Positions 4,424-53,464 of a stretch of 60,198 bases of DNA are shown one piece after another. Under the pieces are notes generated by a model. That model was not told the DNA's origin. It did no database searches and worked only from the letters and a program-made list of their open reading frames with translations. The translations under genes were made by a program, and so were the position numbers. Positions within the stretch are counted from its first letter, which is position 1. Each line of letters opens with the position of its first letter. The stretch is from a phage, in the NCBI GenBank assembly GCA_018175315.1, contig GCA_018175315.1_4769.1; one strand, 5' to 3'.

Positions 4424-5131
4424 ATGAATATTAATCAACAAGCTCCCGAGTCCCGTTCTAAAGAAAACGATATGTATTTAGACGTGCATTCGGTATTCTC
4501 TACCATTCAGGGTGAAGGTCCATTCTGCGGCCAACCTGCTGTATTTGTGCGTCTTGCTGGGTGCAACCTGCAATGTCCTGGCTGTGATACGGATTATACT
4601 GTTGGTCGTAGTCTTTATCATATTGTCGATATTATGCGTTTAATCGAAAGCCGTAAGCTGGAATCGGGCAATAGCACCTCACTTGTGGTTATCACTGGGG
4701 GTGAACCGTTCCGTCAGCAAATTAACCCGTTTATTGAACAACTGTTATCGCGCGGCTATTTGGTGCAAATTGAAACTAATGGGTCTATGCCTTTACCTAA
4801 GAACTTTTCCCAGTTACCTGTAATTGTATGTAGTCCCAAGACCTCAAAGATTCATCCTTCTGTGCTGCGCCGCGCTAATGCATTTAAATATGTACTTAAA
4901 GCGTGCTGTGTAAACGTGGAAGATGGTTTACCTCTTCAAGCATTAGATCATCAAGCTACGCCATTTATCGCTAGACCTCCGAAGGGTTTCAAGGGTAAGA
5001 TATATTTACAGCCAATGGACGAGCAGGATGAAGACCTTAACCACAGTAATATCCAAGCCGTTGTCCAAAGCTGTATGAAACACGGTTACACGTTGCAGCT
5101 TCAGGTTCACAAATATATCGGAGTGGAATAA
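4424..5131 (+). CDS. queE: 7-carboxy-7-deazaguanine synthase QueE (radical SAM)
   Basis: Radical-SAM CxxxCxxC motif (CNLQCPGC) near N-terminus; GAGG RBS; sits in operon with queC/queD/folE. Confidence 0.85.
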   Translation: MNINQQAPESRSKENDMYLDVHSVFSTIQGEGPFCGQPAVFVRLAGCNLQCPGCDTDYTVGRSLYHIVDIMRLIESRKLESGNSTSLVVITGGEPFRQQINPFIEQLLSRGYLVQIETNGSMPLPKNFSQLPVIVCSPKTSKIHPSVLRRANAFKYVLKACCVNVEDGLPLQALDHQATPFIARPPKGFKGKIYLQPMDEQDEDLNHSNIQAVVQSCMKHGYTLQLQVHKYIGVE

Positions 5132-5385
5132 TGCGTGTGTTAAGCCAGGTTGTGCATACTAAAGATGTTAATTTTTGTGGTGTCACTTTAACCGTTCCAA
5201 GTCGAGTGGATTATCTGGCAGCCGACAAGGATGGGAATGTTTGGGGATATGAAGCAATTCCTCCAGAACTTAGCCATCGCTTTGATAGATGGTTGCCAGC
5301 AGATCCGGAAGCTTGCGAGTACGATGAAATAGCTGATGTAGATCTTGAAGGCTTAGACTGGACTCAAACATTAACGGAGGTTTAA
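5131..5385 (+). CDS. hypothetical protein (inside deazaguanine operon)
   Basis: 84-aa ORF, GGAG RBS, ATG overlaps queE stop (translational coupling). Confidence 0.5.
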   Translation: MRVLSQVVHTKDVNFCGVTLTVPSRVDYLAADKDGNVWGYEAIPPELSHRFDRWLPADPEACEYDEIADVDLEGLDWTQTLTEV

Positions 5386-46974: not shown

Positions 46975-47586
46975 ATGTCTAAAGTAACTCACCGCGAACA
47001 GGACAAAATGCGTTACACCATGAAAACGAATGCACGCCGCGCCCTTAAGACCCGTTGGGGCCAGGTTGCACGCGATGCACACGAGCAGTTAATCCATCAG
47101 GACGAGATCGGTTTTTACATCGTCGAGAAGGAAGTCCTTCAGGTACTGCGCGACCATAAAAAAGCGCAACAACCGGAGCAGAAAGTCCCGGCACCAACCG
47201 CCGCGCCAGCTGCCAGCGTCTCGGTACTGCGCCCGATGGTAAATCCGGAAATCGTCAAAAGCTGCCTCGAAGCTTTGGAGCAGGAGGAAGAGAAAGATAT
47301 GAAACACGCAAAAGCTGCCACGCAGGTTTCTGAAATCAAAATTGAAGAGCCAAAAGCTGCCGCGCCAAAACAGGATGCAAAAGCTGCTCGCTGTGATTTC
47401 AAAAATGGCGCTCGCAAGCCTCTGAAAGGAAAAACTGCCGAAGTGTGGGCAATGGGCGACAAACTTTTAGCCGAACTGGGCCGCACGCCGGAGCTGAAAG
47501 AGATGAAAGCTGCAATGCCTTCTTACAACGGGACAACGGTTGCCATTCAGTTCTACGCTTGGAGAACTTATCATGGACTTAAATAA
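46975..47586 (+). CDS. hypothetical protein
   Basis: AAAGGAG RBS before ATG 46975; 203 aa, charged and Ala/Pro-rich. Confidence 0.55.
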   Translation: MSKVTHREQDKMRYTMKTNARRALKTRWGQVARDAHEQLIHQDEIGFYIVEKEVLQVLRDHKKAQQPEQKVPAPTAAPAASVSVLRPMVNPEIVKSCLEALEQEEEKDMKHAKAATQVSEIKIEEPKAAAPKQDAKAARCDFKNGARKPLKGKTAEVWAMGDKLLAELGRTPELKEMKAAMPSYNGTTVAIQFYAWRTYHGLK

Positions 47587-48055
47587 TATCTTCAGCTATC
47601 AAAACGGAGAATTATTTTGGAAAATAAGACCAGCTAAACAGATTTCTATCGGTAGTAAAGCTGGTGCACCAAATAAGCGCGGATACATCCTGATAGGATA
47701 CAAGGGAAAACTATATCGTCGTTCAAGGTTAGTATGGGAGTTGCATAAAGGCCCGATACCGGAAGGACATCAAATAGACCATATTAACCATTGTACATGG
47801 GACGACCGCATAGAGAATTTGCGCTTAGTGTTGCCAAGCGATAATAGTAAAAATCTTAGCAGGGCAATAAATAACTCTACCGGAGTAACAGGAGTTTACT
47901 TTAATAAAAAGGCATGTAAATTTCAGGCTTACATTCAAATAAACGGATTGAAAAAGTATCTAGGTTTATATGATACTATAGAGGACGCAAAACAGGCCCG
48001 TAAACAAGCGGAAGAGCATTACAAATTTCACGCCAACCACGGACTGGACGCATGA
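47573..48055 (+). CDS. HNH homing endonuclease with AP2-type DNA-binding domain
   Basis: HNH core (GYKGKLYRRSRLVWELHKG ... IDHINHCTWDDRIENLRLV) and AP2-like segment (VTGVYFNKKACKFQAYIQINGLKKYLGLYDTIEDAKQA); GGAG RBS. Confidence 0.7.
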   Translation: MDLNNIFSYQNGELFWKIRPAKQISIGSKAGAPNKRGYILIGYKGKLYRRSRLVWELHKGPIPEGHQIDHINHCTWDDRIENLRLVLPSDNSKNLSRAINNSTGVTGVYFNKKACKFQAYIQINGLKKYLGLYDTIEDAKQARKQAEEHYKFHANHGLDA

Positions 48056-48092
48056 TCTATAACCACATCAACCAACGGGCTTCTGCGGGAGC

Positions 48093-48422
48093 CTATTTCA
48101 AATAAAGATTTTCAATCATGTCGTTCTTCGGGTCGTTGATATACTTCCCGAAGACCGCACCTTTACCCTGTGGGCCGTGGAACATTTCATAAACGACTCG
48201 AGCTCTTAAGACTTTACGGTTTTCACCTTGGCAAATAGGTGCTAAGCAAATTTTACAATGAAGATGCGGAGCACAAACATCTTTAACTTCGTCACCTTTG
48301 GATATGCCGTATTTCTTAAAGTCCTTCTTCCAGAATAAATCTCCATCCTTATACTCAAAATATTTATTCCATTTTGGCTCTTTCTTCCACCAGTGTTTTT
48401 TATAATCCCATTCAAGACTCAT
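48093..48422 (-). CDS. HNH endonuclease (putative)
   Basis: GGAGTG RBS before ATG 48422; INDPKNDMIENLYL resembles the HNH_3 H-x-D...N...NL core. Confidence 0.55.
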   Translation of the reverse strand: MSLEWDYKKHWWKKEPKWNKYFEYKDGDLFWKKDFKKYGISKGDEVKDVCAPHLHCKICLAPICQGENRKVLRARVVYEMFHGPQGKGAVFGKYINDPKNDMIENLYLK

Positions 48423-48582
48423 ATTCACTCCAAACAATAGTTTAATTTTGCGCGCTACGTAAGACAGCCTCCTATAGACTTGCTATTGCTGTGGAGGCTG
48501 CCCGTGTTACCGGACCTCTGCAATAACTCCTCTCTGCCTTAATGCAGATTATAGCTTGATATACCTTCCGATCACAATAGTT

Positions 48583-49250
48583 CAATAATTTATTCCATTA
48601 TTCCAATTATTCCGGAATCTGGAATAATACTGTATATCCATACACCATATTCCATTAACAATCCTGTCACGAATTGTATTCTTTCACTTTTTGTGAGTTT
48701 TGTGATTTTTTGTAGCAGACCTTGCGAACGTCAACTAATACCAATAGGTACTATATACATTACTAATAAAACCTTATTTTATATATATTTATGGTATTAA
48801 TTATTAACTTTTAGTTTCTATCCATTTTTAGTCTGTTGACTGAAAGTTTTAGGTTTTTGCGCTCCAGAGTACCGATTCCATTATTCCATCAAGTAGGAAT
48901 AATTTATTCCACTTCCATCATTTGGATTTTTACCCATTCCATTCACTATTCATTTAGTATCTATCCTATTGATTTATATACGTTTTTTACTAACAGTCGG
49001 GATTTGGGTGTTAGGGTAAAAAATGCGTTTTACCCCAAAACGCAAAAACTTACTGCACCAACTTATTGTTTTTATTAAAGTTTTTAGCAACAGTGGCACC
49101 ACAAAACTTCGCAAAACTTCGCAAAACTCACAAAACTTTCCGTCACATTGTGCAAACTGCGGAGCACCAACTATTCCTACCCAAAACTTTCCATCACATG
49201 TGGTTATATATTAACAATCCGCTCACATCATAACTTCAGGTGGAATAATT
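48583..49250. repeat. iteron-like repeat region (GGAATAAT / ATTATTCC family; CAAAACTT tandem repeats; AT-rich core)
   Basis: TTATTCC at 48590, 48598, 48607, 48881, 48904; GGAATAAT at 48621, 48896, 49242; CAAAACT at 49102, 49112, 49122, 49131, 49182; AT-rich 48741-48830; no ORF with RBS. Confidence 0.5.
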
Positions 49251-49297
49251 GTGGCTGGCTTACTATGGATTGTGTATAGTGCTGTTAGGAGGTAGGT

Positions 49298-49513
49298 ATG
49301 GACTGTCAAAAAGAATTTGATCTTAAATACATAACCACATCAGAAATTGAAAACCGCTTCGGTCTTAGCCGTCGCAAATTATGTTCGCTTCGCGGTAAGC
49401 TGCCGGGCGAAGTTAAGATTGCTAACGTGTATGTCTATGTTCGTGCAGTTGCAGAGCCTGTCTTAATGTTGCACGCTGGCCGGGTTGTGCCGGAGGTTGG
49501 TCGTGGGTCGTAA
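49298..49513 (+). CDS. small HTH-type DNA-binding protein (putative)
   Basis: AGGAGG RBS; ITTSEIENRFGLSRRKLCSLR resembles a helix-turn-helix. Confidence 0.45.
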   Translation: MDCQKEFDLKYITTSEIENRFGLSRRKLCSLRGKLPGEVKIANVYVYVRAVAEPVLMLHAGRVVPEVGRGS

Positions 49514-49790
49514 GTGCAGAACTGTCCCGGGCAGCAATTTCAAAGGCCGTGGGCTCGCACGCCGAAAGCCCCGAGTGCCGCGGGAAAATGTGAGCGGGCG
49601 TGAGGGCGTTACTTTCGATTACAAAACTGGTAAATGGCTCGCCCGATTAACATGGGTAGATGCGAGCGGGGAAACAAGGCGAACTTTCCTTGGACTGTAC
49701 GACAGCATGAAAGACGCTTGCGAAGTATATGATGCAAATAATTCAGCATATGAAGAATGGCGGAGGAAACAGATCTATGGCTACAATTGA
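49503..49790 (+). CDS. AP2-type DNA-binding domain protein (start uncertain; GTG 49503 proposed)
   Basis: GVTFDYKTGKWLARLTWVDASGETRRTFLGLYDSMKDACEVY parallels the AP2-like segment of the HNH at 47573; GGAGG precedes GTG 49503. Confidence 0.4.
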   Translation: MGRKCRTVPGSNFKGRGLARRKPRVPRENVSGREGVTFDYKTGKWLARLTWVDASGETRRTFLGLYDSMKDACEVYDANNSAYEEWRRKQIYGYN

Positions 49791-50022
49791 TCCTTTCATG
49801 AAACAGGTTAATTCAAAATCTTCATGTTGCTATTTTGGCAAGTCTTTAGACATCAACGGTTATGTTGTTGAACATGTGGAAGGTGAAGGCTATCGCTTAT
49901 ACGTTAAAGTTTTGGATAGCGTGGAATATGTTAACACATTTGCGTCCAAGCGAGAAGCTCGGGACACAGTTGATAATATTAAGGCGGCAATTATATCCAT
50001 GTTAAAACTAGCTTCTAATTAA
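49777..50022 (+). CDS. hypothetical protein
   Basis: GGAGGAAA RBS before ATG 49777; 81 aa. Confidence 0.5.
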   Translation: MATIDPFMKQVNSKSSCCYFGKSLDINGYVVEHVEGEGYRLYVKVLDSVEYVNTFASKREARDTVDNIKAAIISMLKLASN

Positions 50023-50031
50023 GGACAAGCA

Positions 50032-52368
50032 ATGGAACTGTTTCCCGCTGAAATTAAAGCTTTCCCACAATGGGCGGTCGCCGATGCGGATAAAAAGCCG
50101 CTCGTATGGGATAACGATATTGGACGTTTGATGGCGGCGGACGTTACCGATCCGGATATGCTTATGACGTTTGAAGCTGCCAAAGGTTGCGCTGCTCATT
50201 TCAATAAACCTTATATTGGATTTGTGCTTACTGCCCAAGACCCGTTCACCTGCATCGATCTGGATGTGAAGAATGCAACCAATGAACCAGACCCCAAGAA
50301 GCACACGACGCCGGAACAGTTGCGCCGCTTCGAACAGATCATGACTGCGTTCGATACTTACACCGAAGTGAGTCGCTCAGGCTTGGGTGTTCACCTGTGG
50401 TTAAGAGGTAACATCGGTAAAGGTCGTCGACGTGATGGTGTCGAGGTTTATAGTCAGGAGCGTTTTATTATCTGCACGGGCAATCCCGTCTACAACAAAC
50501 CAGTTGCAGAACGTGATCATTACCTTACTATGCTTGTGAATGAAATTGATCTTCAGCGCAAGACATATGAAATTGAACTGGTAGAAAAAGATCCGGTAGA
50601 AGATGATGCAACTATTCATCAGCGTGCGCTTGAAGCAGATAACGGCGATAAGTATGCACGGTTATTTAACGGTGAATGGGTTGAAATGGGATTCCCCTCC
50701 CAGTCTGAAGCAGACCTTGCCCTTATTTCCATGTATGCATTCTACACGGAAAGTAATGAGCAATGTCGTCGTCTGTTTCGTTATAGTGCACTGGGAAAAC
50801 GTGAGAAGGCTAATAAGAACAATGTTCATATTGACCGTTGCTTGCGTATGTGTCGAGGTCGCATGGAGCGTGAGCGCATTGCCCAGGAAAACGTAGCGGC
50901 GCTGGCGCGGGATTACGCTGCCCGTATGCAAGCTGCACACAGCACAATGCAGCAGGTAGCGGAAATGCCTGTAACCACAGTCAGCCCGTCTGGTGAAATA
51001 GTAGTTGCAGAAAGTACGTCCATTGATGCAACCGCTATTGAGTGGCCTCCGGGGCTTGCTGGGGAGCTTGCGAAGTACATCTACAAAGCATCGCAACGTC
51101 CCGTGAAAGAAATTGCAATCACCGCATCGTTAGCATTTCTGTCTGGTGTGTGCGGTAAAGTATGGAATACTATCACCAACACAGGGCTGAACGGTTATTT
51201 TGTGCTTATTGCTCGATCTGGTGTGGGTAAAGAGATGCTTCACGCCGGACCCAGCTATATTTGCAAGCAAGTAGGGGAGCAATTACCGCAAGTTCATGAA
51301 TTTGTAGACATGACTAACTATGCGTCCGGTCCTGCATTGCGTAAAAGTTTTGCGGATCATAGTTCGTTTGTGAACATTAACGGAGAGTTTGGCAAAACCA
51401 TCAAAGGTATGGCAACAGCTCAGCCCGGTACTGCAAACTATACTCTGAAGCAAACTATCACAGATGTATATCAAAAATCTGGCGCAATGGATGTTGTTGG
51501 CGGTATTGGATATTCTGATAAGGCTAATAATACCAAAACAATGGAAGGGGTGGCGTTCAGCGTGCTGGGAGAAACAACACCGGACACGTTCTTTGAAGCA
51601 TTAACCCGTGAAATGATGGAAGACGGTTTCTTGTCCCGTTTCCACATTGTGCAATATGAAGGAGATCGAGTTCCTGCAAACGAAAACCCTGAGATTATAA
51701 TGCCCCAGCAGTTGAAGGACATGGTGTGCCATCTTGTTAACCACACCTTAGTAACAATGGCGAAGTTTCAAACGGTCACAGTTCAGTTAAGTCCTGAAGC
51801 TGAAAGGATTGAACGGGAGTTTAACCTGTTATGTGACGAACACATTAACGCAACCAAAGACGAAGCTATCCGTCAGCCGTGGAACCGTGCGCACCTTAAA
51901 GCTCTGCGCCTTGCGTCCCTGCTAGCGGTAGGGGAAAACTGGATCAACCCTGTCGTTCAGCCAAATCACATGCAATGGGCGGTAGATTTTGTTACGCATG
52001 GACAGGACATCATGATCAACGCATGGGAAAAAGGTACTATTGGCGGTGATGATGAAACGCGCGTGAAGGCTATTTGCCAGGTCTGCAAAGACTATCTTGG
52101 CGGTAAGATTGCATGTGATCGTAAGGAGCTGCGCGTTGACGGTATCATCCCGAAGGCAACTATCACACGCAGGACATACGGTCTGGCAGCATTCAAGAAC
52201 CACCGGATGGGGGCAGGTACTGCGACAGACCTGACTATCAAACAACTTGTAGACATGGGCGCGCTCGTTCCAGTCACGCGTGAAGATGCGTTGAAGCGTA
52301 ATTTCAGGGGATTGGGTTGGTATATAGACGAGTCCATTGAGAGTGTTTTCAAGGACTTAAGCAAATAA
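50032..52368 (+). CDS. DNA primase (prim-pol/AEP-type N-terminus with C-terminal ATPase/helicase-like region)
   Basis: AEP motifs FTCIDLDVKN (DxD) and SRSGLGVHLWL (SxH); Walker A-like ARSGVGKE; 778 aa. Confidence 0.65.
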   Translation: MELFPAEIKAFPQWAVADADKKPLVWDNDIGRLMAADVTDPDMLMTFEAAKGCAAHFNKPYIGFVLTAQDPFTCIDLDVKNATNEPDPKKHTTPEQLRRFEQIMTAFDTYTEVSRSGLGVHLWLRGNIGKGRRRDGVEVYSQERFIICTGNPVYNKPVAERDHYLTMLVNEIDLQRKTYEIELVEKDPVEDDATIHQRALEADNGDKYARLFNGEWVEMGFPSQSEADLALISMYAFYTESNEQCRRLFRYSALGKREKANKNNVHIDRCLRMCRGRMERERIAQENVAALARDYAARMQAAHSTMQQVAEMPVTTVSPSGEIVVAESTSIDATAIEWPPGLAGELAKYIYKASQRPVKEIAITASLAFLSGVCGKVWNTITNTGLNGYFVLIARSGVGKEMLHAGPSYICKQVGEQLPQVHEFVDMTNYASGPALRKSFADHSSFVNINGEFGKTIKGMATAQPGTANYTLKQTITDVYQKSGAMDVVGGIGYSDKANNTKTMEGVAFSVLGETTPDTFFEALTREMMEDGFLSRFHIVQYEGDRVPANENPEIIMPQQLKDMVCHLVNHTLVTMAKFQTVTVQLSPEAERIEREFNLLCDEHINATKDEAIRQPWNRAHLKALRLASLLAVGENWINPVVQPNHMQWAVDFVTHGQDIMINAWEKGTIGGDDETRVKAICQVCKDYLGGKIACDRKELRVDGIIPKATITRRTYGLAAFKNHRMGAGTATDLTIKQLVDMGALVPVTREDALKRNFRGLGWYIDESIESVFKDLSK

Positions 52369-52860: not shown

Positions 52861-53118
52861 ATGAACATTGAAGATTTTCCTGTGTGGCCTGCCTTCATAC
52901 CGCCTCAGTCTACTACTGGGTCTTATTTTAGAATTGGGTTTGTCATAGAGTATCAATTAAATCTTTTGTCATATTTAAGAAAAGAATTAGACAAACTGAA
53001 TATTAATAATATTGGTCAATTGCGAAAAAGGCTCAAAATTAAACGGCGTATCACGGAATTAGATAAGGTTGTTACACAACTTCTTAGATACCAGAGAGTA
53101 GTTAATTTTAAGTTGTAA
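52861..53118 (+). CDS. hypothetical protein
   Basis: GAGG RBS before ATG 52861 (ORF track's longer ORF begins upstream). Confidence 0.45.
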   Translation: MNIEDFPVWPAFIPPQSTTGSYFRIGFVIEYQLNLLSYLRKELDKLNINNIGQLRKRLKIKRRITELDKVVTQLLRYQRVVNFKL

Positions 53119-53137
53119 CTTTTGTGAGGGTGATAAG

Positions 53138-53464
53138 ATGACCAATAACGTTCTAAGATTATTTGCTTACGGTCTGGCAAGTAAATTTGGCTTTGGTGAT
53201 GGTGATATTCTCGAATATTTTTGTGAAGACAATGATATTGATTTACAAGGACGAGATGAACATGACGTTTTAATTAAGCTGGTAAGAACTTATCTTTTAC
53301 CTCTTATTCCTCATGTTCAAGTGTATGAAATTGGATCGCTTCATAATCCAATCCGCTGTGAGGATGAGTTTATAAAAGAGCTTGAGCAGAGCGAGATTTA
53401 CGTTGATGTAAGTATTGATCAACTTGTACAATGTATTAACGAAACAGAAAAGGCGGACTGGTGA
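53138..53464 (+). CDS. hypothetical protein
   Basis: 108-aa acidic ORF with GAGGG RBS. Confidence 0.5.
   Translation: MTNNVLRLFAYGLASKFGFGDGDILEYFCEDNDIDLQGRDEHDVLIKLVRTYLLPLIPHVQVYEIGSLHNPIRCEDEFIKELEQSEIYVDVSIDQLVQCINETEKADW

Follow-up and report, generated by a model that had tools for sequence, protein, structure and literature searches.

The window analysed here, a stretch of 60,198 bp, is the complete or nearly complete genome of a Seuratvirus (Queuovirinae), a virulent E. coli siphovirus with ~96% identity to phage Skure. Its gene map contains a gap of 858 bp at 48440-49297, and our subject is the part of this gap at 48548-49297 (0.75 kb), which we propose as a replication origin. The first gene after the gap encodes a 71-aa protein, and the last gene of the operon directly downstream encodes a 778-aa primase-helicase. 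Because rightward genes begin at ~46.6 kb, from where they continue across the record end to ~14 kb, the gap falls close to where the early/replication gene block begins, directly upstream of the primase-helicase operon. The leftward block at 15-46 kb we take to hold the structural and packaging genes, judged from the sizes of its open reading frames (ORFs) alone. The region was compared across 18 related genomes, comprising 11 with allele W of the primase-helicase, 6 with allele C, and Hafnia phage yong3. These are GenBank phage records, used in place of IMG/VR, where a scan with the primase-helicase returned 4 loci. Feature coordinates are collected in Table 1.

A preliminary description of this DNA had presented 48440-49297 as non-coding and rich in repeats, which was borne out: no ORF is conserved there, and the repeats cluster only here. 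The gap contains ORFs of 35-80 aa, none of which is conserved across relatives. Ten phages (Skure, SLUR25/63, GottfriedDienst, VogelGryff, KS_W4 and others) match the 858-bp region at 95-97% over its positions 109-858; most of the matching records carry no annotation in the gap, whereas the KS_W4 depositors did annotate ORFs there. Alignment with the Salmonella phage STP-SP5 (77% identity) revealed indels of 1, 2, 9, 10, 11 and 21 nt, which break every reading frame in the gap and leave the repeats intact. The small ORFs annotated in KS_W4 were rejected as genes because their frames are not conserved in STP-SP5. What this phage keeps is a footprint of TTATTCC and CAAAAC units, the AT-rich core and both promoter hexamer pairs, while the spacers, a hairpin and a palindrome drift.

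It is highly improbable that the region is neither origin nor operator, that is, a packaging (pac/cos) site, a non-coding RNA locus or coding sequence decayed through homing-endonuclease traffic. Decay would not keep at least 20 motif copies, and the indels in STP-SP5 destroy every frame and spare the repeats. No family matched in an Rfam scan of 47500-50000 at E <= 1, and the hairpin is not conserved. The likely portal and terminase ORFs, as assigned by ORF size and genome position alone, lie on the other strand at ~36.7-40.3 kb. The iteron array is also traversed by an ATG-initiated ORF of 63 aa (49023-49214, preceded at 6 nt by AGGG), which would encode a product of low complexity and has lost both start and frame in STP-SP5.

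The interval 48440-49297 does not hold as one element: 48548-49297 stands, while 48440-48547 belongs to an inserted HNH gene. This HNH-like gene and its 108-nt leader (together 48093-48547) form an insertion common only to Dru_SM1 and SLUR76/26; the gene product matches phrog_99 and phrog_959 and has no Pfam match. Other Seuratviruses carry a plus-strand 108-aa gene at this position, and where it is present the conserved leftward promoter of the gap would read antisense into its terminator hairpin. From 48548 to ~48860 the sequence is common to all Seuratviruses at 85-97% identity. The right-hand part, from ~48860 to 49297, is common only to the Skure-like group and STP-SP5, and other groups have unrelated DNA in its place that is rich in another repeat. 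A search of E. coli genomes and plasmids found nothing similar to the region, implying that it was not borrowed from a host or plasmid replicon.

Table 1. Features of the gap and of the genes to its right, with positions in the 60,198-bp window.
Feature	Position	Strand	Remarks
Leader of the minus-strand HNH-like gene (48093-48437)	48440..48547	-	Flanking DNA, outside the conserved region proposed as origin
Leftward sigma-70-type promoter (predicted)	48548..48577	-	TTGTGA-18-TATAAT, directed away from the AT core; consensus scan
Class II left cluster	48589..48656		Three direct TTATTCC 8-9 nt apart, one inverted, one degenerate
Class I left array	48688..48712	+	TTTTTG-TGA-GTTTTG-TGA-TTTTTTG, 9-10 nt spacing
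AT-rich core, candidate DNA-unwinding element	48737..48830		94 bp, repeats on both sides
Invariant box GTTGACTGAAAG	48835..48846	+	Right edge of the AT core; identical in 17/17 aligned genomes, both alleles
Class I right-proximal pair	48845..48859	+	AGTTTTAG GTTTTTG
Class II right cluster	48872..48943		GATTCCATTATTCCA, palindrome GGAATAATTTATTCC, one degenerate copy
Hairpin GGGTAAAA-AATGCG-TTTTACCC	49014..49035		Present, not conserved in STP-SP5
Class I distal inverted pair	49036..49050	-	CAAAAC-G-CAAAAAC
Class I tandem, four CAAAACT(T/C) units	49102..49139	-	~10 nt apart; fifth at 49182-49189; kept in STP-SP5
Candidate replication-operon promoter (predicted)	49222..49249	+	CTCACA-16-(TG)AATAAT; scan
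71-aa MerR/excisionase-type winged-helix protein (predicted fold), phrog_11967	49298..49513	+	Candidate reader of class II
AP2-only ORF	49485..49790	+	AP2 match below Pfam cut-off; matches phrog_99 and phrog_4578
Primase-helicase gene	50032..52368	+	Candidate initiator and reader of class I iterons

AT-rich core and two families of repeats

The AT-rich stretch reported at 48741-48830 is present; at 17.8% GC, it is the 90-bp window with the least GC in the 60,198 bp. The anchor was located in 17 Seuratvirus loci, every one of which keeps the left 60 bp of the AT core. The box GTTGACTGAAAG next to it includes a -35-like TTGACT, after which no usable -10 element was seen on inspection; by analogy with the template site of NrS-1, the invariant prim-pol domain of the primase-helicase might recognize the box or start there. 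The second-lowest-GC stretch of the genome (52921-53010, ~21-23% GC) lies downstream of the primase-helicase gene, in a segment (52864-53461) that varies among otherwise close relatives.

Two families of short repeats surround the core. Class I comprises ~12 copies with the core TTTTG, corresponding to the CAAAACTT units first noticed at this locus. Five copies facing one way bracket the AT core, and seven of opposite orientation lie 180-340 bp to its right. The latter include the four tandem units that had been described at ~10-bp spacing, and these are indeed found at 49102-49139 with a spacing of 10/10/9 nt, as CAAAACTT at 49102, 49112 and 49131 and the variant CAAAACTC at 49122. The exact 8-mer CAAAACTT is not enriched genome-wide (7 copies against 4.4 expected); AGTTTTG is 35-fold denser in the gap than elsewhere.

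Class II has the consensus TTATTCC, with 8-10 copies in the gap. The 7-mer itself occurs eight times in the 858 bp and eight times in the other 59 kb, a density excess of 65-69-fold, and TATTCC occurs ten times in the gap. At least eight copies of GGAATAAT had been counted here; the repeats are real and clustered, but the gap holds six exact 8-mers rather than eight. The whole window contains nine against 2.34 expected, a number reached by none of 100 shuffles. In the left cluster the direct copies lie at 48589-48613, and direct and inverted units together span 48589-48628; the intact units of the right cluster, including the palindrome GGAATAATTTATTCC, lie at 48872-48912. Single class II sites are located at 49170 and 49241. 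The ~12 TTTTG-core and 10 TATTCC units in 750 bp are 13- to 69-fold denser than in the remainder of the genome, and no second cluster of either family was found in the 60,198-bp window.

Two further elements had been pointed out in the gap. The hairpin is real, although it lies at 49014-49035, one base from where it had been placed; it is not conserved in STP-SP5 and is probably incidental. The 21-bp element does occur in two copies (49131-49152 and 49182-49202), which share 18 nt at 94% identity. Both the hairpin and the CACA(T)TGTG palindrome that forms half of this element were rejected as functional elements, since neither is conserved in STP-SP5.

Class I repeats and the C-terminal domain of the primase-helicase

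The primase-helicase combines an archaeo-eukaryotic primase (AEP) prim-pol domain, an NrS-1-type helix bundle, an MCM-like AAA+ helicase and a C-terminal winged helix, the latter two recognized from a structural model. The protein matches phrog_3022 'DNA primase' with an E value of 7e-247, and PF22763 matches residues 224-259 with 28.4 bits against a cut-off of 27.9. The helicase part has the MCM-clade AAA+ fold in the test applied, and its best structural matches are MCM-family proteins, with the winged helix as the next domain; the NrS-1 C-terminal region was absent among the 60 structural matches listed. The winged-helix domain is predicted at aa 661-778 (nt 52012-52365).

The gene is a mosaic with a boundary near 51097, and two alleles of it circulate among Seuratviruses. 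Between the window and CAjan, residues 1-300 are ~100% identical, whereas identity from codon ~356 to the stop (residues 356-778) is ~61%. DNA identity is back at 95.8% exactly at the stop codon, so that the divergent block is the C-terminal half of this single gene. Comparison of the alleles gives 53-90% identity for the helicase part and the lowest value, 29-60%, for the C-terminal domain (the last 118 residues).

The class I repeats change together with this allele. In 11/11 genomes with allele W, TTTTTGTGAGTTTTGNGA stands before the AT core, GAAAGTTTTAGGTTTTTG after it, and an inverted CAAAAC..CAAAAC ~180 bp further right; in 6/6 genomes with allele C, the three matching places hold AGGTTTATnAAAATTTATAGAGTTTAT, GAAAGTTTATAAGTTTATAG and ATAAAC..ATAAAC, the last at the position homologous to the distal inverted pair. 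The position of the left array reads GGTTTAT..AATTTAT..AGTTTAT in the C genomes, and that of the right-proximal pair reads AGTTTATA AGTTTATAG. Counts over the gap give the same picture: GTTTTG is present 4-7 times in the 11 W genomes versus 0-1 times in the 6 C genomes and yong3, and GTTTAT 6-9 times in the C genomes and yong3 versus 0-1 times in the W genomes. The choice between GTTTTG and GTTTAT thus tracks the W versus the C or yong3 C-terminal allele in 18/18 genomes, with a copy-for-copy switch at three sites. The iteron role assigned earlier to GGAATAAT is not upheld by this pattern; the probable iterons are the CAAAAC/GTTTTG units, which switch with the C-terminal allele of the primase-helicase.

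The association is independent of the class II module. Allele W occurs with TTATTCC or ATAGTG, the latter in Greed and others, and allele C with ATAGGGT or ATAGTG, the latter in KS_A8 and phiG7. Hafnia phage yong3, which has a window-like gene order, carries a third lineage of the C-terminal domain (44% identical to W) and GTTTAT repeats; four tandem ATAAAC units occupy the same position, at the same spacing, as the four CAAAACTT units of the window. It shares with allele C the helix motif GIIT[RK][GS]DI[TQ]TR and the wing motif F-T-G-x-A-W, the counterparts of which in allele W are GIIPKA[TS]ITRR and F-[RK]-G-L-G-W. The N-terminal domain of the primase was rejected as a reader of the repeats because it is ~100% identical between both iteron types. 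The architecture can be traced within Seuratvirus and yong3 only.

Class II repeats and the 71-aa protein

STP-SP5 has the left class II cluster in full, whereas Greed, CAjan and others lack it. The right cluster is likewise kept in STP-SP5, and the corresponding segment in other groups holds ATAGTG or ATAGGGT arrays instead. ATAGGGT (12 copies) is found in CAjan, Seurat and slur01, and ATAGTG(G) (6-10 copies) in Greed, WildeMaa, CSP1, SA80RD, SA126VB, Dru_SM1, KS_A8 and phiG7. The gene for the 71-aa protein is present in every relative, in sharply different alleles. Allele S1 (window, Skure, KS_W4 and the genome handled as L008) goes with TTATTCC, as does the STP-SP5 protein, which is grouped with S1 (78% identical overall, with identical helix-turn-helix and wing). 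Alleles S2 (Greed group) and S4 (KS_A8 and phiG7) go with ATAGTG, and S3 (CAjan, Seurat, slur01) with ATAGGGT. The 'HTH' protein at 49298-49513 therefore holds up as a candidate binder, because the GGAATAAT/TTATTCC family tracks its allele. Its predicted fold is MerR/Xis/Cox-like; sequence searches against Pfam, NCBIfam and the PDB returned nothing significant, and only the predicted fold was informative.

The neighbouring AP2 protein, also named as a repeat binder, was rejected in this role, as STP-SP5 keeps the TTATTCC repeats without the AP2 ORF. Three genes are private to the TTATTCC group, and only the small protein was found in STP-SP5, the AP2 ORF and the next ORF of 97 aa being absent. 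The AP2 ORF aligns only to residues 110-150 of a full-length HNH protein at the same site in SA80RD, and full-length HNH-AP2 homing endonucleases occupy this site in SA80RD, Dru_SM1 and yong3. From its sequence, the ORF is best read as what remains of such an endonuclease after loss of the nuclease part, and Skure-like phages still retain it. DnaA boxes were rejected by inspection, since it takes three mismatches or a 1-nt shift to match TTATTCCA(C) to TTATNCACA, and comparison of the motif with other host-factor consensus sequences gave no convincing match.

The groups with ATAGGGT or ATAGTG carry an extra gene of 250-260 aa (phrog_27223, gp65-like), which the window does not have. It is found at 4553-5335 of locus L004 (CAjan gp65), 4127-4873 of L007 and 2215-2943 of L016. 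The gp65-like protein has no Pfam or NCBIfam match and exists in at least four alleles, 39-66% identical, each behind an ATAGGGT or ATAGTG array.

These associations raise the alternative that the region is an origin with a different initiator. The small winged-helix protein, or the gp65-like protein in other groups, would bind TTATTCC and recruit the primase-helicase by protein contact, comparable to lambda O recruiting P-DnaB, and the TTTTG units would serve as phased DNA-bending T-tracts or secondary contacts. The TTATTCC arrays are in fact the densest repeats and lie on both sides of the AT core, the repeat type and the adjacent small-protein or gp65 allele are swapped together as a module, and the ~10-bp phasing of the TTTTG units is like that of bending tracts. 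However, bending alone leaves unexplained why TG changed to AT in concert at three sites and in step with the C-terminal domain of the helicase. In addition, the primase-helicase has a predicted winged helix of its own, and Greed-type genomes have no class II repeats to the left of the AT core. We consider a small-protein initiator unlikely and favor the primase-helicase.

The DNA modification context of CAjan is reportedly GA and GGC. The class II unit, read as GGAATAA, holds a GA step, and the TTTTG and TTTAT iteron cores are without one. For phage iggy (Queuovirinae), a strict GA motif is reported for dPreQ0 modification (PMC10484667). Modification might conceivably influence how proteins bind at the origin.

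A candidate origin fused to a control region

In our reading, 48548-49297 combines the replication origin of Seuratvirus with the region that controls the replication operon, and we assign this reading a probability of roughly 60%. It builds on the anatomy, the conservation pattern, the allele co-variation and the predicted folds presented above. As in iteron origins, short repeats form a local cluster, an AT-rich element lies adjacent, and the repeats co-vary with the DNA-binding domain of the presumed initiator. The locus had been described as an origin or a multi-site operator; the comparative evidence speaks for both, as two superimposed systems, although with the roles of the repeats reassigned.

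From these observations we infer binding, loading, melting and regulation as follows. The primase-helicase would act as its own self-loading initiator, with its C-terminal winged helix reading the ~12 helically phased hexamer iterons of core TTTTG. Its ring would assemble on either side of the AT core and melt it, and the N-terminal prim-pol would prime synthesis at the melted core. The 71-aa winged-helix protein, product of the first gene of the operon, would bind the two TTATTCC clusters, of four to five copies, flanking the AT core as well as the single sites, and would probably shape or gate the origin. One of these sites, TGGAATAAT (49241-49249), overlaps the candidate -10 element (49244-49249) of the operon, so that binding of the 71-aa protein would auto-repress the replication genes. 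The two conserved promoters would fire outward, which would favor opening of the AT core.

Counts of promoter-like sites did not exceed those in shuffled sequence, and such sites were retained only if conserved across diverged genomes; terminator-like sites number 1 against 1.5 expected by shuffles. A block of 44 bp, 97.7% identical across all Seuratviruses, contains the leftward promoter, and STP-SP5 keeps both hexamers of this promoter with a changed spacer. The geometry of the replication-operon promoter recurs with divergent spacers, its -10 element reading AATAGT in STP-SP5 and AATATT in yong3. With hexamers kept and spacers free, the two elements are conserved in the manner of real promoters. 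Such elements would also fit a region that serves transcription control only, through divergent early/middle promoters and operator arrays, while replication starts elsewhere or is primed by recombination or transcription. The region is delimited by the two promoter-like elements, one of which has a repeat across it, the predicted fold of the small protein is one used by repressors and Cox-type regulators, and the rightward gene block begins close to the region. Against this stands that the most AT-rich 90 bp of the genome are bracketed by repeats that track the DNA-binding domain of the helicase and not the regulator, a link for which an operator role gives no reason, and that promoter-like sites are not enriched. 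Transcription control alone is in our view quite unlikely, and we retain the combination of origin and control region.

The closest worked-out analogue is the iteron origin of staphylococcal pathogenicity islands (SaPI) with its Rep or PriRep5 protein, to which the SCCmec Cch helicase is related. In SaPI, the initiator (Rep or PriRep5) is an MCM-like helicase that loads itself and in some cases is joined to a primase; 6-12 short iterons, placed to either side of an AT-rich center, are bound by its C-terminal winged helix (PMC9371898). Homology to SaPI Rep at the sequence level was not shown. Several features differ. The candidate origin of the window lies ~0.7-1.4 kb upstream of the primase-helicase gene, whereas that of SaPI is immediately downstream. 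The iterons that bracket the AT core share one orientation here, and opposite copies begin at 49036. For its primase part, the protein of the window has an AEP prim-pol joined to an NrS-1-type helix bundle, a second interleaved repeat family comes with its own candidate small binding protein, and the carrier is a virulent 60-kb siphovirus instead of a satellite.

An N-terminal prim-pol and helix bundle followed by a ring helicase in one polypeptide is an arrangement shared with NrS-1 and ORF904 of pRN1. In the archaeal plasmid pRN1, the gene for a small DNA-binding repressor (orf56) precedes the replicase in one operon (PMC4234260), and the gene order here, from small winged-helix gene to primase-helicase, is similar. 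The helicase of NrS-1 belongs to superfamily 3 and has novel head and tail domains (PMC7102993); in contrast, the protein of the window has MCM-family matches and a winged-helix tail in place of such a helicase. For NrS-1, initiation is also proposed at a template site of 8 nt that its N-terminal part recognizes, whereas here the N-terminal part is invariant and the repeats change with the C-terminal domain.

The alpha protein of satellite phage P4 unites primase, helicase and a C-terminal winged-helix origin-binding domain in one polypeptide and acts on short direct and inverted repeats (type I iterons of ori and crr). The primase-helicase resembles it as a single polypeptide with a predicted C-terminal winged helix, although its primase and its helicase are of other classes. 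P4 needs crr as a second, distant cluster, unlike this window, which has none. The class II system is reminiscent of Cox/Xis/RdfS proteins and their sites, such as the P2 Cox boxes: a small predicted winged-helix protein is encoded beside the array, and direct TTATTCC units lie 8-9 nt apart, one class II unit being placed over a predicted promoter -10. The yong3 homologue of the 71-aa protein was annotated as 'regulatory protein cox' by its depositors.

Several observations weigh against an origin read by the primase-helicase and gated by the small protein. Independent events behind the co-variation are few, with two main alleles, some five combinations of modules and yong3, so that linkage without functional coupling is possible. 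The more distant relatives Vid5 and PSTCR4 have no clear iteron array beside the gene. The orientation of the iterons directly around the AT core departs from the simple inward- or outward-facing pattern of SaPI. The proposed check by cumulative GC skew places the minimum at ~49.2 kb, in line with an origin, yet both gene orientation and the C-rich repeats themselves confound this signal. Promoter-like sites in the region number 4 against 4.2 expected by shuffles, and no Seuratvirus or Queuovirinae origin is described in the literature that was searched. As for the small protein, the gp65-like protein co-varies with the class II repeats wherever it is present, which makes the reader in those phages ambiguous. 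Furthermore, Dru_SM1 (L003 3150-3215) combines a window-type left TTATTCC cluster with an ATAGTG right module and an S2 protein. Either recombination orphaned this cluster or the small protein does not read it; Dru_SM1 appears to be a recent recombinant with an orphan repeat cluster.

A more specific and doubtful extension of our reading, put forward only tentatively, is an origin with two keys, in which self-loading is directed by TTTTG or TTTAT, a small Xis/Cox-like protein on exchangeable repeats gates firing and gene expression, and the two modules recombine independently. If true, such modules would act as replication 'compatibility types' that determine which co-infecting relatives, satellites and defence decoys use the machinery. 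Origins of this kind, with iterons, an AT-rich element and an adjacent initiator, are known; this instance appears to be undescribed, as do two exchangeable specificity layers and an MCM-like prim-pol initiator in an enterobacterial virulent phage. If the proposed origin is correct, the TTTTG and TTTAT iterons paired with two winged-helix alleles would constitute a natural specificity swap for studies of how an MCM-like primase-helicase locates and opens an origin in a virulent phage, and the self-loading initiator-helicase scheme of staphylococcal islands would extend to enterobacterial phages. Queuovirinae are widely used, in the BASEL collection as well as in work on 7-deazaguanine DNA modification, and 48548-49297 would be a region to leave undisturbed, or to exploit, when these phages are engineered.

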